NCBI GenBank assembly: GCA_038061835.1 | Contig: JBBTYJ010000015.1 | Location: 3,907 to 67,906, forward strand | DNA: 64,000 bases | DNA from: Patescibacteria group bacterium | Lineage (GTDB): Bacteria > Patescibacteriota > Minisyncoccia > Phycocordibacterales > Zambryskibacteraceae | Reading direction: 5' to 3' | In this document: positions 2,917 through 44,830 of the stretch, one piece after another | Position numbering within the stretch: the first letter of the stretch is position 1 | Layout: each line of letters starts with the position of its first letter | Notes under the pieces: model-generated | The model's input: only the letters and a program-made list of their open reading frames with translations | Told to the model about the DNA's origin: nothing | Databases searched by the model: none | Position numbers and translations under genes: made by a program

Positions 2917-3013
2917 AGAAAAAGAGGAATTGGGTATTGGTTGATAGAAACAACTTCGACCCTCGGTTTGTCCAAATTTATTTAGGTAAACCGGGGGTTG
3001 TTTTTTATATTTA

Positions 3014-3036
3014 AATATCAAGGTTTAACCTTGCTC
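3014..3036. repeat. REP-like palindrome copy 2 (AATATCAAGGTTTAACCTTGCTC)
   Basis: 23-bp exact direct repeat of copy 3; contains palindrome CAAGGTT-T-AACCTTG; 30 bp upstream of RAYT start. Confidence 0.7.
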
Positions 3037-3065: not shown

Positions 3066-3743
3066 ATGTCCACACGAGTTCCATTTGGCACTGGGGAGTG
3101 GTATCACTGTTACTGTCGTGGCGTTGATAAACGCAAAGTATTTTTAGAATCAAAAGACTATGAAAGATTTATTCTTTCTATGCATGCTGGAAATGGCCCA
3201 TTAGCCGTACATCTCTCAAATATTTTGAGAAATAAAAAATTTAATGAGATTCTTACAACACTTTTTCAGAATGAACATCTGGTTGATATTGGAGCATTTT
3301 GCCTTATGCCAAATCATTTTCACTTACTGCTTAAAGAAGTGGAGGAAGGTGGTATATCGCTTTTTATGCAAAAGGTTTTAACGGGATACACTATGTATTT
3401 TAATGAGAAATATGAGCGGAAGGGTGCCTTATTTGCAAATACCTATAATTCTCGACATATTTTTGATGACAGATACTTTAAGAAAGTTATAGCCTATATA
3501 CATCTGAACCCGGTCGAGTTAGATGAAATAAATTGGAAGGTGGGAAGTGGGGATATTAGAAAAATAGAAAAAAGACTACGTAATTATAAATACTCGAGTC
3601 TCTCTGCCTTTACAGATATCGAAAATCCAAGCAACTCTATTATCTCTGGTTCGGTTTTAGAAATATTTGACTCACTTCCATCAATCAGAGAAATGCTGGC
3701 AGACGCTCAAACTTATTATCAAGAACAAAATATCAAGGTTTAA
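3066..3743 (+). CDS. IS200/IS605-family Y1 (HuH) transposase-like, REP-associated tyrosine transposase (RAYT)-like
   Basis: HuH motif FCLMPNHFHLLL, catalytic-Tyr region YIHLNPV, N-terminal WYHCYCRGVDKRKVF; flanked by REP palindromes; 225 aa. Confidence 0.8.
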   Translation: MSTRVPFGTGEWYHCYCRGVDKRKVFLESKDYERFILSMHAGNGPLAVHLSNILRNKKFNEILTTLFQNEHLVDIGAFCLMPNHFHLLLKEVEEGGISLFMQKVLTGYTMYFNEKYERKGALFANTYNSRHIFDDRYFKKVIAYIHLNPVELDEINWKVGSGDIRKIEKRLRNYKYSSLSAFTDIENPSNSIISGSVLEIFDSLPSIREMLADAQTYYQEQNIKV

Positions 3744-3751
3744 CCTTGCTC
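3729..3751. repeat. REP-like palindrome copy 3 (AATATCAAGGTTTAACCTTGCTC); overlaps RAYT stop codon
   Basis: Exact 23-bp repeat of copy 2; TAA stop of the RAYT gene lies inside the palindrome (GTT TAA CC). Confidence 0.7.
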
Positions 3752-9752: not shown

Positions 9753-9787
9753 GGTCGCTACTATGGGAGGAGTGGCGACCTTTTTTA
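9753..9787 (+). terminator. Rho-independent terminator
   Basis: GGTCGC-loop-GCGACC followed by TTTTTTATTT. Confidence 0.75.
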
Positions 9788-9907
9788 TTTATCCAAAAGG
9801 CCGGTCCACCACTTGAAAGTAAAAGTCATCAATAGATAAGCCGGTAGATAGATAGGTACCAAAATAAAAAACAAGATTAGGCGCACTGTCTTCATGAATA
9901 TTTTCAT
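9785..9907 (-). CDS. 40-aa hydrophobic peptide ORF (not in track) whose ATG abuts MITE copy A
   Basis: Translation MKIFMKTVRLILFFILVPIYLPAYLLMTFTFKWWTGLLDK; speculative. Confidence 0.25.
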   Translation of the reverse strand: MKIFMKTVRLILFFILVPIYLPAYLLMTFTFKWWTGLLDK

Positions 9908-9973
9908 CCCGTTAGAAGTTTACTTCTCATAATATTACCACTATGACTCAAACTTGTTGAACTTCTAACGGGA
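9907..9973. mobile_element. MITE-like element copy A (67 bp; 14-bp TIRs TCCCGTTAGAAGTT/AACTTCTAACGGGA; TSD TTCA)
   Basis: Perfect 14-bp terminal inverted repeats, 39-nt interior, TTCA direct repeat at 9903-9906 and 9974-9977. Confidence 0.7.
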
Positions 9974-9974
9974 T

Positions 9975-10217
9975 TCATACAGATTGCTTAGCTGACCAAA
10001 GTGACATAATCATTCGCCAAATAAACATAACTGCCGGTTTGATATAAAACCAAACTATATTTAACACATCTTTTACATAATTTATGGTATTTTTCCCTTG
10101 TTCCGAGTTGGCTACGTCAATAATAGACCAATTCAAGAAATATTTAAGGAGCGCTAAAGCAATAATGATAAGTATCAGCCAACTGACAAAACCCTTATTT
10201 CTCGGCATATTCTCCAT
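9975..10217 (-). CDS. Small membrane protein (~80 aa, 2 TM)
   Basis: Only the part of track ORF 9975..10415 downstream of the M23 gene stop is non-overlapping; MENMPRNKGFVSWLILIIIALALLKYF... Confidence 0.4.
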   Translation of the reverse strand: MENMPRNKGFVSWLILIIIALALLKYFLNWSIIDVANSEQGKNTINYVKDVLNIVWFYIKPAVMFIWRMIMSLWSAKQSV

Positions 10218-10245
10218 TCTACTCCTCGACAAAGCTCGGAGCAAG

Positions 10246-11529
10246 TTAAAGAACCGGTAAGTAAGCAAGAGGATCGAGATACGCATCTCGTCCTTTCGCA
10301 ATCGGGACAAAGACCTGTTTACATCCGATACTGGTAGTGAATTGTCTAATCTCCACACCTTGTGACGCAAAGAGTCCGACGTGGAGATGCGGACCCTTGG
10401 AATACCCCGAACCATTTACTCCAGGCACCCCGCCTGAATAGCCAATCATCTGCCCCACGCTCACCTCTTGACCTTTTGGCACTAATGAAGCAGATAGATG
10501 GGCGTAAATACTCGTTAGGCCATTATCGTGTTTTATTAGTATCCAGCGACCATACGAATAACAGCCTTTCTGGTTATCCGTATTACCAATACCTTCGATT
10601 ACACCAGCAAGCATTGAACGCACCGGAGTACCCATGGAGGCTCGAAAATCAAGACCATTATGAAAACAGTCAGCGCTGCCATAGATACTGCAATCCGACC
10701 TGCCAAAAAGACCTGTAATAAACACATTATCCAAAGGCCAATCCAAAATGCCGCCCTTGGGTTTAGGAAAAAGAGATGGGTCAAGCGTAATACGTAGTTC
10801 TTGTTCCAAGCGATCAAGATCAGCTTCTGACTCTTTCTGTCGCGCTATGTTTGCTTGGATAAGTTTCTGATATTCCACTTCTTTGTTTTTTGTCTCAGTG
10901 AGAAGTTTTGCCTTTGCCTTCTGATTCTCTTCAACGACCGACTTTTGTCCACTTAACTGTCCACGCAAACTCACTTGTTCCTTTTTTATTTTCTCTTTCT
11001 CCATTTTTTGTTGGTTGAGTATCCTACGAGTCTCGCGTAAGGCGGTAATTTCTTCTTCCAGACGAGCATTCAGACCTGCAAGTTGACTCCCATCCCTCCA
11101 AATATCCGATAATCGGATAGAGGCCAGTATTTGGAGGATTAACGGACTAGAATCGTAATCGGATAAGGAAGTGAGAGTATTGGCAATCGCCGCTCTATGC
11201 GTGATAATCTGTTTCTCTTTCTCGCTCATGGCATTCTCAAGCGAACGGATGGTCAAATCGGCGGAAGTAATTTTCGACTGAGTAATGCTGATATCTTTGG
11301 CAAGCTTCTTTTTGGTCGTATCGAGCGATTTAACAGCGCTGCCGAGAGTCTGACTTTCTTTATTGATTTCATCAAGCTCCACTTGAAGCTTCTTCTGTTC
11401 TTCAACGAGCACTTCTCTATCTCTTCTCACCCGTTCTATTTGTTGTTCCAGTTCGCTTGGATTAGCGGCATTTAGGACAAACGGTATAATCAAAAAGATA
11501 ATAAAAATACTAATGAATCTCTTGTTCAT
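10246..11529 (-). CDS. M23-family (LytM-domain) peptidase with signal peptide and long coiled-coil (EnvC-like)
   Basis: HNGLDFRASMGTPVRSMLAGVI...GPHLHVGLF M23 motifs; N-terminal hydrophobic signal; Q/E/K-rich coiled-coil. Confidence 0.85.
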   Translation of the reverse strand: MNKRFISIFIIFLIIPFVLNAANPSELEQQIERVRRDREVLVEEQKKLQVELDEINKESQTLGSAVKSLDTTKKKLAKDISITQSKITSADLTIRSLENAMSEKEKQIITHRAAIANTLTSLSDYDSSPLILQILASIRLSDIWRDGSQLAGLNARLEEEITALRETRRILNQQKMEKEKIKKEQVSLRGQLSGQKSVVEENQKAKAKLLTETKNKEVEYQKLIQANIARQKESEADLDRLEQELRITLDPSLFPKPKGGILDWPLDNVFITGLFGRSDCSIYGSADCFHNGLDFRASMGTPVRSMLAGVIEGIGNTDNQKGCYSYGRWILIKHDNGLTSIYAHLSASLVPKGQEVSVGQMIGYSGGVPGVNGSGYSKGPHLHVGLFASQGVEIRQFTTSIGCKQVFVPIAKGRDAYLDPLAYLPVL

Positions 11530-11595
11530 CCCGTTAGAAGTTTACTGATAATAAAATCTTTACCAAACTTTATGAGAGCTGAACTTCTAACGGGA
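11529..11595. mobile_element. MITE-like element copy B (67 bp; identical TIRs; TSD TTCA)
   Basis: Same 14-bp TIRs; 39-nt interior about 50% similar to copy A; TTCA at 11525-11528 and 11596-11599; sits exactly between the GluRS-like stop and the M23 start. Confidence 0.7.
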
Positions 11596-11596
11596 T

Positions 11597-12475
11597 TCAT
11601 TTATTTCTGATTTTACCAAGATTGAAATGTTTTCGATTTACCCAAGCTAGTTTTTTTTCGTCGAAAATTGCACCTCCTTTATGAACTTTCGAGAAATCAA
11701 AAACATTTATCAATTCATCAAGAGTAAAAATTTCCTGCTCCGTACCCGGATTCCAACCCAAGAGAGCCAAGTAGTTAATAATAGCCACAGGTAAATATCC
11801 TTTTTGTCTATAATAATCAAGCGAAACTGATTCCCCGTGCTTGCGTTTGGAAAGCTTTGATCTATCCGGAGCCAAAATCAGAGGGAGGTGCGCATAGATT
11901 GGCCGTGGCGCGTCGATTGCCTCCTGAATCAGAATCTGTCTCGGAGTGTTGGAGATGTGGTCCTCGCCGCGGATCACATGTGTAATCTCCGCTTCAAAAT
12001 CATCAACCACAACCGCTAAGTGATAAAGGGGTTCGTTAAGATTTTTTGCAATAATAAAATCTCCAAGTTCGGTGGTATCAAACTCTACCTTACCGCGAAC
12101 CAAATCCTCAAAAACCATTTGTTTATTAGGATTGCGAAAACGCACCACTTCCCTATTCTCACCCTCTGTCTCCGTCGAAATATAGGCCTTATTGATTTGT
12201 ATTAATTTATTCAAGTGAGATTTGTAAATTTCCGTGCGTTCAGACTGATGCCAAAGCTCGCCATCCCTTTCAAAACCGAGCCATTTGAGACTTTCAAGCA
12301 TGCTTTCTTCATATTCCTTCTTGGAGCGCACTCTGTCCGTGTCTTCTATTCTAACTACAAAATCTCCACCATTCTGTCTGGCAAATAGATAGTTGAAAAG
12401 CGCAGTCCTCACGTTACCGATATGCAGCGGTCCTGTCGGCGATGGTGGAAATCGGGTAATAATTTTTTGATTCAT
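11597..12475 (-). CDS. Glutamyl-tRNA synthetase catalytic-domain-only protein (GluQRS/YadB-like length, no anticodon-binding domain)
   Basis: Class-I motifs PSPTGPLHIGN and KLSKR; 292 aa ends right after the catalytic domain (..WVNRKHF). Confidence 0.75.
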   Translation of the reverse strand: MNQKIITRFPPSPTGPLHIGNVRTALFNYLFARQNGGDFVVRIEDTDRVRSKKEYEESMLESLKWLGFERDGELWHQSERTEIYKSHLNKLIQINKAYISTETEGENREVVRFRNPNKQMVFEDLVRGKVEFDTTELGDFIIAKNLNEPLYHLAVVVDDFEAEITHVIRGEDHISNTPRQILIQEAIDAPRPIYAHLPLILAPDRSKLSKRKHGESVSLDYYRQKGYLPVAIINYLALLGWNPGTEQEIFTLDELINVFDFSKVHKGGAIFDEKKLAWVNRKHFNLGKIRNK

Positions 12476-13617
12476 TTCTCTATCTCGTGTTCAAGAGCAA
12501 TTTTAAGAATTTCTTCGGCAATCAAACGCGCGGCGTTTGACTTATAAAATGCTTTGGCTGCTGTTTTCATTTTTTCGCGTTCGATTTCATTTGTAATCAG
12601 CCGTTCAATCTCCGATGCAAGGAGATTAGCCGTAAGATTATTTTCTTCTATTACCTCGCACGCTCCGGCACGAGCGTAGGCAAAGGCGTTCGAATGCTGG
12701 TCATGACTGATTTTTTCATTAATAGGCACGATAATTGACGGTACACTCCAAGACGCGATTTCAAAAATAGTTGAACCAGCGCGCGAAATAACCAAAGAAG
12801 CCACCCCGGCCGCCATGCGCATTGTCAAAACATTAAGATAATCAAGGGCCCTGTATCTCTCTTTATAAAGAGAGTCAAGAAGAACTGCCTCGCTGGTAGC
12901 TCTGACTTCCATAATATTGTTTTTGCCGACCTGATGAATAATTGCGTATTTTTCAACCAAACTCTTAAGATCTTCCAAAATCGTATCATTAATCTTTTGT
13001 GCGCCTTGCGAACCGCCAAGTATTAAAATAACCGGAATATTTTCTTCAATTTTTAAAAATTCGCGGGCGCCTGAAGTGATGGGAAGAGCGATTTCCTTAC
13101 GCACGGGCTGACCGGTATAAGCCACCGCTCCTGCCGGGAAATATCGGACAGCTTCTTTATAAGAAACGGCGACGATCCTGGCAAATTTCCCAGCCCACAA
13201 ATTTGTCTTTCCGGGAATAGTATCGGACTCGTGGATTACCACTGGAATGCGTAAAAGGCGCGCCGCTACCAACGCGGGGAAACTTGCGTAGCCTCCTTTG
13301 CCAAAAACAACATCGGGATAAAGTTTATATACCATGTAGAGCGAGGAAAGAATCCCCCACCCTGTCCTAAATAGATCAACAAAATTAGGGATAAAAATCC
13401 ACCAATGAGCAGAGCGGCGAATTTTGCCTGCACTATTTTTCTTATAGGTAATACCATTTTCAAAGAGTACTCCGGGATTATACGGAGTGGGAGACATATA
13501 AAATAACTCTAGTTCAAGAAGTCTTTTCTCTTTAGTCAGATTATTGAGTTCTTCAGCAATGGAAACTATCGGGTAGAAGTGTCCCCCGGAACCACCACCA
13601 GTAAATAAGATACGCAT
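12472..13617 (-). CDS. murG: UDP-GlcNAc:undecaprenyl-PP-MurNAc-pentapeptide GlcNAc transferase MurG
   Basis: MRILFTGGGSGGHFYP N-terminus, GT28 family pattern; 381 aa. Confidence 0.9.
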   Translation of the reverse strand: MRILFTGGGSGGHFYPIVSIAEELNNLTKEKRLLELELFYMSPTPYNPGVLFENGITYKKNSAGKIRRSAHWWIFIPNFVDLFRTGWGILSSLYMVYKLYPDVVFGKGGYASFPALVAARLLRIPVVIHESDTIPGKTNLWAGKFARIVAVSYKEAVRYFPAGAVAYTGQPVRKEIALPITSGAREFLKIEENIPVILILGGSQGAQKINDTILEDLKSLVEKYAIIHQVGKNNIMEVRATSEAVLLDSLYKERYRALDYLNVLTMRMAAGVASLVISRAGSTIFEIASWSVPSIIVPINEKISHDQHSNAFAYARAGACEVIEENNLTANLLASEIERLITNEIEREKMKTAAKAFYKSNAARLIAEEILKIALEHEIEK

Positions 13618-13694
13618 CCCGTTAGAAGTTAATTTTTATAAACTTGTTGGTAAAAAATATCATGGTAAGTAATTTGAAAAAACTTCTAACGGGA
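13617..13694. mobile_element. MITE-like element copy C (78 bp; identical TIRs; TSD CGCA)
   Basis: Same 14-bp TIRs; 50-nt interior; CGCA direct repeat at 13613-13616 and 13695-13698 (reverse complement TGCG = murG start ATGCG). Confidence 0.7.
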
Positions 13695-13705
13695 CGCATT
13701 GTTGT

Positions 13706-15890: not shown

Positions 15891-17734
15891 TATGGTCTGT
15901 GGCCTACGATAAAGACATTGTACCAGATGGCTAACATCAAAAGGAGATAGATTTTTCTTGAGTTATCACTCTGGCCGGAGATATGATCATCTATAAGATT
16001 TTTAATAAACGAGATATTCATGTGATTCTGGATATATGGATTATCCAAAATAGTATTATAAATACTTTGCCTCTCTTTCGTAAACCAGTTTCTAACGGGT
16101 GTTGGAAAACCAAGTTTCCTTCTCCTGCGCACCGATTCAGGCAAAATTTGTCTAAACGCTTCACGTAAAAGATATTTAGTGATCCCGCGTTTCCATTTAA
16201 ATCGATCTGGAAGACTCGACGCAAGACGCGCCACCTCAATATCTAGAAATGGCACTCTCAATTCGAGTGAATATGCCATAGTCATTTTGTCAGCCTTGGC
16301 CAAAATATCTCCGACAAGCCAAGTATTAATATCAATGTATTGCATTTTGGTCGAATCACTAAAACGAGCAGCTTCCTTGTATAGGTCTCTGATTAAAAAC
16401 TTTTGCTCTGGTTTATCTTTCCAGAGAGATTTAATTTCTGTTCCATTAAAAACAGAGGCGTTGCCAATATACCATTCTTCAAGTTTTTGACTTGCTCTCG
16501 TGGCATAATTTTTACCCCTAAAATCAAAGGGTAATTGGCTAATAAATTTCAAGATAATATTAGGTATCCAAGTAATCCATCGGCGCGCGAAAGGTTCTAA
16601 GTAAATATTATAACCGCCAAAGAGTTCGTCCGAGCCCTCGCCGGAGAGTACTACTTTGACGTGCCGAGCCGCTTCCCGAGCAAGAAAATATAATCCCAGG
16701 GCCGAGGGATCTGCCACTGGTTCATCAAAATGCCATACCGCCTTGGATAAATTTGTAAAATATTCTTCGGCTCCGATAGTAATTTCGCAATGATCAGAAT
16801 CGATCGCTCTAGCGGTCTCCAAGGCTTCTTTGCTCTCGTTTAGAGATTCAAAGCCAACGGTAAATGTTTTAATTTTTTTACTCGCATTGAACGGGATTGG
16901 AGTATTATTTCTAATTTTCTGCATCAGGGTCGCAATGATACTCGAATCTATGCCTCCGGATAAAAAGGATCCAACCGCCACATCGGCTACCATGTGATGA
17001 GCAACAGAATCCTCCATCGTTCTAAGAATTTCTGCGGCCGTTTTTTTCTCATTTAGAGAATTATTCTGTTTGAATTCAAATTGCCAATATTTTTTGATCT
17101 CCGTCGCTCCGGTTTTAACATCTATTTTCATAAAATGGGCAGGCAATAGTTTGAAAACATTTTTAAAAAAAGTTTCCTCAAGAGGATTATATTGGAACGA
17201 CAGATAATTGAAGACTGCTTTGTCATTTACTTCCGATCTAAATTTAGGCAGAGCAAAAAAACTTTTTATTTCTGAAGAAAAAGCGTTGATTTGATTTCCC
17301 TCTTTCCAATAATAAAGTGGCTTGATACCGAAGAAATCGCGTGCCAGAAAGACTTTTTTATCCATGGCATCATAAATGGCAAAGGCAAACATGCCGCGTA
17401 AACGCAGCAATATATTTTCTTCCCACTTTTCGTATCCTGCTAAAATTACCTCGGTATCGCTATTAGTTTTAAACTGATAATCTTTCAGCTCATTTTTAAT
17501 TTCCTTGTAATTATAAATTTCTCCGTTAAAAATAAGCGTGAGTCTGCCATCGTTTGAAGTTATCGGTTGTTTACCTCGGGCAAGATCGATAATCGAGAGA
17601 CGCCTCATGCCAAGCGCTAGATATTCATCAACGAAGAAACCTTCATCGTCCGGCCCGCGATGATGAATTAACTCCGTCATGTTTTTAATGGCGTCTTTTT
17701 CTTTAAAATTAATGATCCCCGCTATACCGCACAT
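15890..17734 (-). CDS. asnB: Asparagine synthase-like glutamine amidotransferase (AsnB family)
   Basis: N-terminal MCGIAGI Ntn nucleophile; PP-loop SGGIDSS; 614 aa. Confidence 0.9.
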   Translation of the reverse strand: MCGIAGIINFKEKDAIKNMTELIHHRGPDDEGFFVDEYLALGMRRLSIIDLARGKQPITSNDGRLTLIFNGEIYNYKEIKNELKDYQFKTNSDTEVILAGYEKWEENILLRLRGMFAFAIYDAMDKKVFLARDFFGIKPLYYWKEGNQINAFSSEIKSFFALPKFRSEVNDKAVFNYLSFQYNPLEETFFKNVFKLLPAHFMKIDVKTGATEIKKYWQFEFKQNNSLNEKKTAAEILRTMEDSVAHHMVADVAVGSFLSGGIDSSIIATLMQKIRNNTPIPFNASKKIKTFTVGFESLNESKEALETARAIDSDHCEITIGAEEYFTNLSKAVWHFDEPVADPSALGLYFLAREAARHVKVVLSGEGSDELFGGYNIYLEPFARRWITWIPNIILKFISQLPFDFRGKNYATRASQKLEEWYIGNASVFNGTEIKSLWKDKPEQKFLIRDLYKEAARFSDSTKMQYIDINTWLVGDILAKADKMTMAYSLELRVPFLDIEVARLASSLPDRFKWKRGITKYLLREAFRQILPESVRRRRKLGFPTPVRNWFTKERQSIYNTILDNPYIQNHMNISFIKNLIDDHISGQSDNSRKIYLLLMLAIWYNVFIVGHRP

Positions 17735-17738
17735 AAAT

Positions 17739-18689
17739 TTAATTGCTACTTATATACCGCATTACGGCGTTAACCAATACACGCGCATCGTCAAAACGAC
17801 CTTCCCCGGCAGAAGCACCGAGGATGGAAACAATAATCGGCCGGCCCAATTCCGGGTCAAAGACAAATGCCAGATTGCCGCCGGCAGTATCGGTAAAACC
17901 AGTCTTAGACGCCATAAGTCCAGGAATTTCCGCGACCAAGCTATTGGTATTTTGGGCGACATGCAGATGATTATCCAATGATTGAAAAGTGGTGGTAGCC
18001 TCTTTGGTTGCATCAAAAAAGGCGGGATGATTCGTGAGTATATATTCCAAAAGAGTACTAATATCTTTAGCCGTGCCATAAGCGCCACCCTTCACATTCG
18101 ACTCATCCAAGCCCGTTTCATTCCAAAAATAAGTGTTCTTAAGATTAAGTTCTCGGGCCTTATCATTCATTTCTCCGACGAAATCATTAATAATTTCCGC
18201 AGACGTTGCATTTGCGCTCGAGAGAGCTCCGAGAGACAGGGCTATCGCCCGCACACCATCATTGGATGACGTTAATAGAGAAAAGTCCAAGAGATCCTTA
18301 AGTTTCCAGTGTTCATTTTTGTATAGACCACTATTGCCTTCCGCGTTTAGGGCTTCCTCAGTTACGATAACCGTGCCATACAAAGGACTTAGATCTTCAG
18401 CAATTAAGGCGGACATGATCTTGGTCAGAGAAGCAAGCGAGAGACGCATGTTTTCGTTTTTAGCAAATAAAACGGTTCGAGTTCTTAAATCATAAACGTA
18501 AACCGCTTTTGCCCCGATTGTTATAGGAGGAAAAGAAACGGCAGCCACCCCGGTAGGAACTGATTTATCTTTCCTTTCCACTTTTGTGTTAAAAATTAAA
18601 GAGACTATAAACAAGCACGAAAGAATAATAGCCAAAACAAGAAAAAATCTTATCTCCGTATGACGTATGGTAGAAAATTGATCATTCAT
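17739..18689 (-). CDS. D-alanyl-D-alanine carboxypeptidase (S11, PBP5-like)
   Basis: SLTK (SxxK), SSNDG (SxN) and KTGFT (KTG) motifs; N-terminal TM/signal. Confidence 0.8.
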   Translation of the reverse strand: MNDQFSTIRHTEIRFFLVLAIILSCLFIVSLIFNTKVERKDKSVPTGVAAVSFPPITIGAKAVYVYDLRTRTVLFAKNENMRLSLASLTKIMSALIAEDLSPLYGTVIVTEEALNAEGNSGLYKNEHWKLKDLLDFSLLTSSNDGVRAIALSLGALSSANATSAEIINDFVGEMNDKARELNLKNTYFWNETGLDESNVKGGAYGTAKDISTLLEYILTNHPAFFDATKEATTTFQSLDNHLHVAQNTNSLVAEIPGLMASKTGFTDTAGGNLAFVFDPELGRPIIVSILGASAGEGRFDDARVLVNAVMRYISSN

Positions 18690-18767
18690 CCCGTTAGAAG
18701 CCGCTACTAGTGACTCGCTGATAATAAATGATATTCATAGTTTTGTATATATGAGCTTCTAACGGGA
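18689..18767. mobile_element. MITE-like element copy D (79 bp; TIRs TCCCGTTAGAAGCC/AGCTTCTAACGGGA, 13/14 match; TSD TTCA)
   Basis: TIRs as in A-C with one mismatch at the inner end; 53-nt interior shares CTGATAATAAA with copy B; TTCA at 18685-18688 and 18768-18771; the scpB stop codon TAG lies inside the TIR. Confidence 0.65.
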
Positions 18768-19337
18768 TTCATTTGATTCTGCGGGCGAAGCTTTTTCAAA
18801 CTCCTCTATTTTTTTAAAAGCAACTCGATATTCCGGTAAATCTTCGCGACAAGTGATCCCTAAATGCTCAAAAAGTTTTAGGGTGGGCTTGTAACTATAG
18901 CTCCTCCCCACTCGAACCGTTTCGTCAGGTGAAGCAAGCGTGTCATCGGGACGTTCAATAAGACCTCGAATAAGAAGCGAGCGGAGAATAAAACTTGAAT
19001 TCACCCCGCGAATATGATCGATCTCGCGGCGGGAAATTGGACCCCTGTAGAGAATAATGGCGAGAGTTTCAAGACTGGCGCGACTAAGCTCGCGAGAAAA
19101 TTCTTCTTTGACTAGACTCTCGATAAGATTACCGGCATCTGGATGAGTACCGAGGCCTGCAAATTCGCCATCGAAAACAATGACAATACCCCTGTTTTTA
19201 TAAAATTCTCCCAATTTTGATAACGTGATTCTTATTTCTTCCGGTTTATTGCCGGTTATTTTCGCCAATTCAGAAACAGAAACCGGTTCGTTCTTGAAAA
19301 AAAGTATTGATTCTATTTTTAATTCTAAATTAAGCAT
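18759..19337 (-). CDS. scpB: Segregation and condensation protein B
   Basis: Winged-helix ScpB pattern ...ISRREIDHIRGVNSSFILRSLLIRGLIE; overlaps scpA by 8 nt. Confidence 0.85.
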   Translation of the reverse strand: MLNLELKIESILFFKNEPVSVSELAKITGNKPEEIRITLSKLGEFYKNRGIVIVFDGEFAGLGTHPDAGNLIESLVKEEFSRELSRASLETLAIILYRGPISRREIDHIRGVNSSFILRSLLIRGLIERPDDTLASPDETVRVGRSYSYKPTLKLFEHLGITCREDLPEYRVAFKKIEEFEKASPAESNESR

Positions 19338-43669: not shown

Positions 43670-44830
43670 CTATTTGATTATACTATCCATCACTCCGCCG
43701 CCGAGACAAGCGCTTGCGCCATCCTTATCAAGATCGCCGTAAAACACTATTGATTGGCCTAGGGACAATCCGCGCACTGGTTCTCTAAACTCCACCTCCA
43801 CCCTGTCAAAAGCTAAGCTTTTGACAGTAACTGGGAGTTTGTTTCCGCGGTATCGTATTCGGGCAAATAGTTGTCGTGTTTTAAATTCATTGATCCAATT
43901 TACACCCTTAACCACAATTCGTGTCGGTGAATGTAATACCATCTCCAGCTCATTATTTGAAACAGTGAGAGTATTCGCCTTCATATCTTTGGATAAAATA
44001 TAAAACGCTCCTTCCTCCGGTGACCTCTTGGTGATTTCGAAACCGTGTCTTTCTCCTATGGTATAAAGCAAGGCGCCCTTGTGAGTACCGATGATATCGC
44101 CGCGAGTATTTAGTACCTTGCCCGGTTTGGTTTTAATAAAATGAGAAAGAAATTCATCCATCGATACATCGCCGATAAAACAAATCCCCTGACTATCTTT
44201 CTTCTCAGAAACCGGCAGATGATACCTACGGGCCAGTTTTCGCACTTCGCCTTTCTCTAAATCACCGATGGGAAAACATGTATGGGATAAATCATTTTGA
44301 TTGAGAGTCCAGAGAAAATAACTTTGATCCTTTCCTCTATCTTTCCCCTCTTTCAGCAAATATCGATACAGAGGTTTAACCTTTGTAGTCCCAAGGTTAA
44401 ACCTCTGTATTTGAGAATAGTGTCCGGTGGCAATAAAATCTGCCCCCATTTCTCGAGCCTTTTTCCAAAACGCGCCAAATTTAATTTCTCTGTTGCAAAG
44501 CACGTCTGGATTCGGTGTCCGGCCGACCTTGTATTCGGCCACCATCTTGTCCGCTACATCCTTTTTATACTCCTTTTCAAAATCAAAAAAGAGAAACGGG
44601 ATATCAAGCGCAATCGCCACTTTCATCGCATCGCGTCTCTCGTCTCTCCAATTGCAAGGCAAAAAATCCGGTTGCCAGACTTTTATAAATACACCCGTGA
44701 CGTTGTAACCGGCTTTCTTCAAAAGCGCGGCGCTGACCGCGGAATCCACACCTCCAGATAAACCTACAAAAATTTTACGATGAGAGGTATTTGGTAATGT
44801 TTTTTTTATGTTCATCGAAAGTCTTGGCAT
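43670..44830 (-). CDS. mnmA: tRNA-specific 2-thiouridylase MnmA
   Basis: PP-loop SGGVDS, catalytic Cys regions, DQSYFLWTL; carries an in-frame ~10-aa insertion encoded by a REP doublet. Confidence 0.85.
   Translation of the reverse strand: MPRLSMNIKKTLPNTSHRKIFVGLSGGVDSAVSAALLKKAGYNVTGVFIKVWQPDFLPCNWRDERRDAMKVAIALDIPFLFFDFEKEYKKDVADKMVAEYKVGRTPNPDVLCNREIKFGAFWKKAREMGADFIATGHYSQIQRFNLGTTKVKPLYRYLLKEGKDRGKDQSYFLWTLNQNDLSHTCFPIGDLEKGEVRKLARRYHLPVSEKKDSQGICFIGDVSMDEFLSHFIKTKPGKVLNTRGDIIGTHKGALLYTIGERHGFEITKRSPEEGAFYILSKDMKANTLTVSNNELEMVLHSPTRIVVKGVNWINEFKTRQLFARIRYRGNKLPVTVKSLAFDRVEVEFREPVRGLSLGQSIVFYGDLDKDGASACLGGGVMDSIIK
44368..44408. repeat. REP-like palindrome doublet inside mnmA coding sequence (ACAGAGGTTTAACC-13 nt-GGTTAAACCTCTGT)
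   Basis: Perfect 14-bp inverted repeat whose cores (GGTTTAACC / GGTTAAACC) match the REP copies flanking the RAYT gene. Confidence 0.65.

Follow-up and report, generated by a model that had tools for sequence, protein, structure and literature searches.

Short palindromic mobile elements that lie inside or immediately beside bacterial genes are known from Rickettsia and Neisseria, and it is with these and related systems that we compare a MITE (short for miniature inverted-repeat transposable element) present in four copies, A to D, in the genome of a Patescibacterium from Hainich groundwater (41% GC). The copies lie in a stretch of 64,000 nucleotides (assembly GCA_038061835.1, contig JBBTYJ010000015.1, positions 3,907 to 67,906 of the forward strand), the whole of which is referred to here as the window. 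All four sit exactly on a start codon within strings of co-directional genes and, judging from the sequences, it is on balance probable that what selection acts on at these sites is a translational relay of ribosomes across a hairpin that hides the start codon.

The Rickettsia palindromic elements (RPE) are likewise short, palindromic and mobile, and they are found in frame within essential protein genes and are translated (PMC10969869). The present element is shorter (56-86 bp compared with approximately 100-150 bp), is found in many phyla rather than in one genus and has no known sequence relation to RPE. It also has a second, equally common niche on start codons, which is associated with out-of-frame lengths. 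Insertion in frame with preservation of the reading frame, as in RPE, is seen in the family but not in the window copies.

Correia elements generate a TA duplication, have 26-bp ends and act through promoters, IHF sites and RNase III. Also termed CREE or NEMIS and found in Neisseria, they are MITEs with inverted ends that are co-transcribed, form hairpins in the mRNA and often lie immediately upstream of genes (PMC10969869). In contrast, the target duplication of the element described here is of 4 bp, in most cases TNNA, a test for promoter asymmetry found none and the element occupies the very start codon. Transposons of the piggyBac/IS1380 type share the 4-bp duplication and the CCC-initial ends (here CCCGTTAGAAGTT), with piggyBac having the left end CCCTAGAAAGATA, a TTAA duplication and footprint-free excision (PMC5861402) and the bacterial IS1380 family having been linked to piggyBac in the literature. 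The duplication here is T-N-N-A and not strictly TTAA, and no transposase was found; the resemblance is a lead from inspection of the sequences.

Elements of the REP/REPIN-RAYT type are also palindromic, repeated and located between genes, and the window does contain a Y1 transposase gene with hairpins of its own. REPINs are not known to generate a target duplication and are lineage-specific. The present element duplicates its target, has the same ends in many phyla and differs in sequence from the Y1-associated hairpins (CAAGGTTTAACCTTG), which sets it apart from this type. Finally, the ATGA overlaps that couple genes in operons by termination and reinitiation have their counterpart in the ATGA found twice around copies A and B and in the TAA-N4-ATG of copy C; here, unlike in such operons, the signal has been duplicated by a transposon, and its two copies are joined by an open reading frame (ORF) of the element that crosses a stable stem. 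The kind of element is known, being a MITE and RPE-like, while the start-codon niche with its putative ribosome relay appears to be a new variant; a full-text literature search returned no relevant paper for the end sequence or for MITEs in Patescibacteria or the Candidate Phyla Radiation.

Structure of the Element in the Window

Copy B (67 bp, 11529..11595) lies at the junction between the genes for a GluRS and an M23 peptidase and consists of a core CCCG...CGGG at 11530-11594 plus a terminal T and A. On the minus strand positions 11600-11526 read ATGAAT-CCCGTTAGAAGTT...AACTTCTAACGGG-ATGA, the wider region being ...AAATAA-ATGAAT-CCCGTTAGAAGTT-(39 nt)-AACTTCTAACGGG-ATGAACAAG... The upstream TGAA duplication (11596..11599, minus strand) forms together with A11600 the original start codon, ATG1, its TGA being the stop codon of the GluRS gene, while at the downstream duplication (11525..11528, minus strand) the terminal A of the element (11529) and the duplicated TG form the start codon of the M23 gene, ATG2. 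The same holds for the element in general, in that its terminal A and the duplicated TG rebuild the ATG of the gene, with the original ATG1 remaining ahead of the element together with its own upstream context or stop overlap. The preliminary description of this locus had given 11525-11599, which spans element B and both TGAA copies and leaves out only A11600 of the upstream ATG, and its layout of stop, TGAA, terminal inverted repeat, interior, terminal inverted repeat and ATG is borne out by the sequence and by the register of the duplication.

Copy A is also 67 bp long (9907..9973; core 65 in both when the terminal T and A are not counted) and is flanked by TGAA at 9974-9977 and 9903-9906. 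Copy C (78 bp, 13617..13694) is found at the FtsW/MurG junction with a TGCG duplication, ATGCGT being present on both sides, and copy D (79 bp, 18689..18767) at the junction between ScpB and a D-Ala-D-Ala carboxypeptidase, again with duplication of TGAA. Copies A to C have perfect 14-nt inverted ends, T-CCCGTTAGAAGTT, while the ends of copy D, AGAAGCT and GGCTTCT, are a one-step variant. The 13-mer CCCGTTAGAAGTT occurs in the window 6 times exactly and 9 times at no more than 2 mismatches; 1.5 occurrences are expected, none of 100 shuffles had more than 5, and the repeat is not due to chance. The exact matches form three inverted pairs, with a fourth pair (copy D) carrying one or two changes; a half-site with 2 mismatches at 16087-16099, inside an asparagine synthase gene, was treated as a chance match.

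Insertion History

Syntenic contigs of relatives with 82-91% protein identity were reached via the GluRS homologues and compared at junctions A to C. At the GluRS/M23 junction contigs L120-L126 have no element and read '...ATGAACAAG', that is '...AATCA-ATGA-ACAAGG', with a 4-nt overlap between the genes. Junction C is empty in L121, in which FtsW and MurG are joined as 'AAATAAACAACA-ATG-CGTATCTTATTTACTGG' with flanks identical to those in the window, and junction A is empty in L121, L123 and L124, which have 'CTGT-ATG-AAG' before a conserved 40-aa ORF. Since relatives have empty sites at all three junctions, copies A, B and C are, on this comparison of contigs, recent MITE insertions. The reading of the repeat as a MITE, made from the window by itself, stands: the element is short, has inverted ends and a target duplication of fixed length (4 bp), is present in several copies and shows presence/absence polymorphism, with empty sites in relatives at three of the four positions.

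A more distant relative, L137, does carry an element (220-287) at the orthologous GluRS/M23 junction, and this is identical to copy B at 62 of 65 positions although the flanking genes are only 69-78% identical to those of the window and closer relatives have the empty site. The similarity suggests either that the same circulating lineage reinserted at one start codon or that the element was precisely lost, and precise excision of the piggyBac kind would fit the patchy occurrence of copy B among the relatives. The two copies are separated by two non-synonymous changes and one synonymous change with the frame still open, from which it is the openness that has been kept and not the peptide.

Distribution of the Family

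The element consensus is Y-CCCGTTAGAAG...CTTCTAACGGG-R plus the 4-bp duplication, mostly T-N-N-A, in a looser R...Y context. The pattern CCCGTTAGAAG-N32-62-CTTCTAACGGG was found at at least 119 loci in contigs from one genome per species, with approximately 1 chance match expected by estimate, and the hosts among the matches listed are Patescibacteria of many classes, Planctomycetota, Omnitrophota, Elusimicrobiota, Nitrospirota and deltaproteobacterial metagenome-assembled genomes. Copies in the window are 67-79 bp long and those elsewhere 56-86 bp, leaving no coding capacity for a transposase. When the flanks of 127 copies from the genome scan were compared the best match was at register 6, with 72-81% identity at the four central positions, and the outermost bases of the element were complementary in 94% of these copies. 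The ends are invariant while the interiors vary widely and track the base composition of the host, GC-rich interiors folding into hairpins in which a few changes are compensatory.

The search for an autonomous partner gave none: end pairs 0.3-4 kb apart with a matching duplication were neighbouring MITEs only (approximately 1.8 Mb of loci), and end pairs separated by as much as 6 kb, whether or not their duplications matched, together with lone half-sites, yielded only neighbouring MITEs or housekeeping genes. A scan of viral contigs gave only 2 matches and so no sign of a phage vector. Rfam detected only a tRNA in the window at the gathering score and had no match at E <= 1 to eight loci with structured copies. 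Elements nested within elements or arranged in tandem were seen at L004 (1139-1321), L014, L025, L037, L051, L074 and L089, and a recurrent CCTG(C/T) directly to the left of some copies that have no recognisable duplication suggests composite or longer variants.

Two Niches, Within Genes and on Start Codons

An unbiased genome sample of 128 copies was sorted by position, with the start-codon class defined by a following ORF of at least 60 codons. Inside long ORFs and in frame were 37 copies, of which the core length was a multiple of three in 34 (34/2/1 for length mod 3 of 0/1/2), while the 33 copies exactly on a start codon were divided 5/12/16 and the 58 copies found elsewhere 30/14/14. The in-frame hosts are genuine essential genes and include SecA (L007), DNA polymerase III alpha/DnaE (L018), CarB (L036), RsmH (L001), PepA (L033) and Mfd (L035), in all six of which Pfam domains flank the insert on both sides, the insert adding about 22 residues of the form x-D/N-PVRS...(T/A)SNG-x. 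Programmed ribosome bypassing of such copies was considered and set aside, the bias to lengths of 3n and the open frames favouring plain read-through. Both niches share the codon register [RTN][NAY]-CCC-GTT-AGA-AG, of which ATG-NAY on a start codon is a special case.

Outside the elements the window contains 1068 RTNNAY sites, with 114 fully intergenic and 8 on start codons. Start codons make up approximately 12 of 126 non-disruptive sites in the window, as against 4 of 4 window copies and 33 of the 91 copies of the genome sample that lie outside ORFs. Start codons are thus preferred roughly four-fold, by targeting or by survival.

The Predicted Start-Codon Hairpin and the Translation Context of the Host

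The hairpin over the start codon that the preliminary description had proposed is also predicted by RNAfold. For copies A and B it predicts a 15-bp stem that takes in the first two bases, A and U, of the ATG of the gene, with a free energy (dG) of -30 to -32 kcal/mol and z of -3.6 to -5.0; overall a terminal stem of 15-19 bp is predicted with dG of -28 to -34 kcal/mol, a stability attained by 0-1 of 200 shuffles. Shine-Dalgarno-like motifs were found upstream of only a handful of the approximately 65 genes of the window, and many start codons, also of genes within apparent operons, have a TATAAT-like box 7-22 nt ahead of them, a combination that suggests mRNAs with short leaders or none. When initiation takes place without Shine-Dalgarno pairing, it is decisive that the start codon be unstructured and accessible, and a stem of 15 bp that covers the ATG should therefore carry a cost unless it is opened in some way. 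In this regard a subgroup of the Parcubacteria is known to lack the anti-Shine-Dalgarno motif (PMC9297842).

Reading Frames Through the Element

In copies A and B the stop codon TGA of the upstream gene (11597..12475 and 9975.., respectively) overlaps ATG1, which opens an upstream ORF (uORF) that runs through the element. That this uORF has 24 codons in both copies and ends in the TGA of GGGATGA, as noted previously, agrees with the list of ORFs: in copy B it encodes MNPVRSSALIKFGKDFIISKLLTG and runs from ATG1 through the element to the TGA overlapping ATG2 (11526..11600, minus strand), and in copy A it encodes MNPVRSSTSLSHSGNIMRSKLLTG, its TGA overlapping the ATG of the conserved 40-aa ORF (9904..9978, minus strand). 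ATGA is found at both ends of the uORF in these two copies. In copy C the uORF has 25 codons (13622..13699, minus strand) and stops at a TAA that belongs to the right end and precedes the murG ATG (13617-13615) by 4 nt, the arrangement being TAA-CGGG-ATG. In copy D the frame from the duplicated ATG has only 21 codons (18707..18772, minus strand) and meets an early TAG (18709-18707) 18 nt before ATG2 (18689-18687). Copy D also has an internal ORF of 14 codons (18694..18738, minus strand) with its ATG at 18738-18736, ending at the TAA of the right inverted end, and in several other copies of 77/78 nt an interior (T)ATGA(A/G) of this kind precedes an ORF that runs to the right-end TAA.

The right end has a property in all three frames from ATG1 that is independent of the length of the element. 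Frame 1 reads ...AAC-TTC-TAA with a stop 4 nt before the ATG of the gene, frame 2 reads ...CTT-CTA-ACG-GGA-TGA with a stop that overlaps this ATG when A follows, and frame 3 reads ...TCT-AAC-GGG-ATG, the frame of the gene itself. Metagenome contigs, scanned next with an ATG required after the right end, added 119 further loci, and pooling of the genome and metagenome sets gave 135 distinct copies with a gene following, most of them at unrelated genes; 98 of the 135 retain ATG, GTG or TTG at the duplicated position upstream. The earlier suggestion that a length of 3n+1 had been selected does not survive this comparison, as start-codon copies fall in all length classes (49/45/41) and the right end handles every frame.

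For a test of stop-free frames, copies were de-duplicated at 85% identity and each interior was subjected to dinucleotide-preserving shuffles. The ATG1 frame was stop-free in 42 of 80 copies in the sense orientation (expected 22.7±3.8, z 5.1) and in 20 of the 80 when flipped (expected 26.0, z -1.5). The excess was seen in the 65-nt class to which A and B belong (7 of 9, expected 2.0, z 4.1) and in the 76/79/82-nt classes of copy C (19 of 21, expected 6.0, z 6.5), and an excess confined to the native orientation is what selection for translation through the element predicts. No conservation is seen in the uORF peptides. Relative to the gene downstream, the element had the same orientation in 186 of 187 similar pairs, the exception being a single copy with ATGs on both sides. 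Fixing of the orientation by the target sequence was rejected as its cause: TCAA/TTGA and TAAA/TTTA both occur in the standard orientation within subfamilies and there is no strict rule.

A Proposed Translational Relay and Its Alternatives

From the insertion history, the geometry and the statistical signature of the copies we infer how ribosomes might behave at these junctions. The insertion would keep the original initiation or coupling context at ATG1, which in A and B overlaps the stop codon of the upstream gene, while in the mRNA the ends of the element would pair into a stem of 15-19 bp that hides the rebuilt ATG, in a host where Shine-Dalgarno sites are nearly absent. On completing the upstream gene, or on initiating at ATG1, ribosomes would translate the short ORF of the element and in doing so melt the stem, and would then terminate on the rebuilt ATG, or 4 nt before it, and re-initiate there. 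Copies on start codons would survive only if this relay works, and such a filter on survival would explain both the stop-free relay frame and the fixed orientation. The element would be a selfish insertion filtered by selection and not a regulator built by the host. The idea of translational coupling put forward in the preliminary description gains comparative support from the stop-free excess, which is limited to the sense orientation, while it finds none among copies of the D type, and coupling is to be read as a proposal from the sequence comparisons.

A number of observations weigh against the relay. The 77/78-nt subfamilies, including copy D, are never open (0 of 21, expected 3.3, z -2.0), such that the relay is not a general requirement, and the smaller unbiased sample has no visible excess (0.45 stop-free as compared with 0.24-0.45 in the other frames). 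Members of a subfamily share ancestry, and the shuffle tests overstate independence as a result. The ATG1 frame is weakly open away from start codons also (0.41 versus 0.24), and part of the open-frame signal may belong to the family as a whole and be connected with its in-frame insertion into genes. Openness does not account for the orientation bias of the 65-nt and 69-nt types, flipped copies of which would be open too. Lastly, a ribosome ending at the upstream stop codon, 4 nt from the stem, might open the stem with no translation of the uORF.

Several of these points are what would be expected if the element were a passive selfish insertion, for which start codons would be the only spot in a packed genome where a 4-bp duplication spares both genes, the uORFs would be by-products and the stem would be unwound by the ribosomes of the upstream gene. 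The empty sites show that the junctions worked with no element in place, in A and B a distance of 4 nt separates the upstream stop from the stem while in D this stop falls within the left arm, copies of the D type stop early and the unbiased sample is without a clear frame excess. It is hard to reconcile passive insertion with the excess of stop-free frames (z = 4-6.5) that three length classes show, and show only in sense orientation, with a near-absolute orientation bias or with the preference, approximately four-fold, for start codons above the remaining non-disruptive target sites, and we regard it as unlikely, though it is the strongest of the competing explanations.

An outward promoter in the element would remove the difficulty of the stem in a different way, since an interior TATTAT/TATAAT 18-24 nt before the ATG could give rise to a short-leader mRNA that lacks the left arm and in which the hairpin never forms. 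TATTAT is present 21 nt (A) and 18 nt (B) before ATG2, a motif TGGTAATAT(A/T)AT is common to several relatives, native genes often have similar boxes close to their ATG (see above) and Correia elements and other MITEs are known to carry promoters (PMC10969869). Against this, a sigma-70 scan matched copy D only, with a total below the shuffle mean, -10-like boxes near the gene-proximal end were as frequent in flipped as in sense orientation (24 versus 21 of 87) and GC-rich subfamilies that have no box show the same orientation bias. The proposal that TATTAT acts as an internal -10 element fails on the first two of these tests, and an internal promoter was rejected as the main explanation, at most having a small chance of being correct. 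RNase III prefers a duplex of roughly two helical turns. The stem of the element is shorter than this, which counts against its being a site for RNase III, or for another double-strand RNase, at which cleavage at the gene boundary would free a short-leader downstream mRNA. Cleavage of this kind would also leave unexplained the depletion of stop codons in one frame and one orientation. It would fit the perfect duplex of 15-19 bp exactly at cistron boundaries and, by analogy, the post-transcriptional cleavage known for MITE hairpins such as those of Correia elements (PMC10969869), and we hold it to be more improbable even than the promoter.

Neighbouring Genes and a Second Repeat System

Downstream of copy B the M23 peptidase (10246..11529, minus strand) has a signal peptide and upstream lies the GluRS catalytic-domain protein of 292 aa (11597..12475, minus strand), both assigned by Pfam. 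The GluRS gene consists of the catalytic domain only, likewise in the closest relatives, while homologues 75-83% identical to it are 393-460 aa long and have the anticodon-binding domain PF19269; because the relatives with the empty site share the truncation, it predates the MITE. Copy A is followed by the conserved 40-aa membrane-like ORF (9785..9907, minus strand) and preceded by an ORF of 146 aa (9975-10415, minus strand) that shares 170 nt with the 3′ end of the M23 gene; at the position of this 146-aa ORF relatives and public gene calls have a 77-aa ORF (9975-10208) followed by the 40-aa ORF. The frame of scpB (18759..19337, minus strand) enters copy D by 13 nt and its stop codon is the TAG of the left inverted end (18761-18759). 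From the sequence, its stop codon before the insertion would have been the TGA of ATGAATGA, with a gain of two C-terminal residues (SR) since.

The window also contains an IS200-like Y1_Tnp ORF of 225 aa (3066-3743, plus strand; Pfam E 6.5e-8) flanked on both sides by a hairpin repeat AAATATCAAGGTTTAACCTTG, which is found at 594-615, 2656-2677, 3012-3033 and 3727-3748 and inverted at 44392-44419. The Y1 ORF and the hairpin repeats are a second, unrelated repeat system that is IS200/IS605-like or RAYT/REP-like. The Y1 transposase is unlikely to be what mobilises the MITE, in that the MITE duplicates its target and the hairpins of the Y1 gene are different.

Implications for the Family and Its Hosts

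It is possible, and we put this forward tentatively from the comparison of copies, that a MITE found across phyla has evolved to be translationally transparent. Its ends would rebuild the start codon and place stops in two frames at or next to it with the third in frame, its interior would be stop-free in the incoming frame, and it would live in genes (3n lengths) or on start codons (other lengths) of ultra-compact genomes lacking Shine-Dalgarno sites via a ribosome relay. If so, the near-identical copy in a distant relative would reflect an element that circulates, has hot spots at start codons and is excised precisely. The invariance of the ends across phyla points to a widely shared mobilising enzyme.

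For the annotation of Patescibacteria and other uncultured phyla the consequences are inserts of about 22 residues, 'PVRS...SNG', in essential proteins, as well as false alternative start codons and small ORFs. If the relay works, a transposon can occupy the start codon, the most sensitive position of a gene, without silencing it, and these junctions would be a natural case, from bacteria that do without Shine-Dalgarno sequences, of termination and reinitiation being chained past a stable stem in the RNA.

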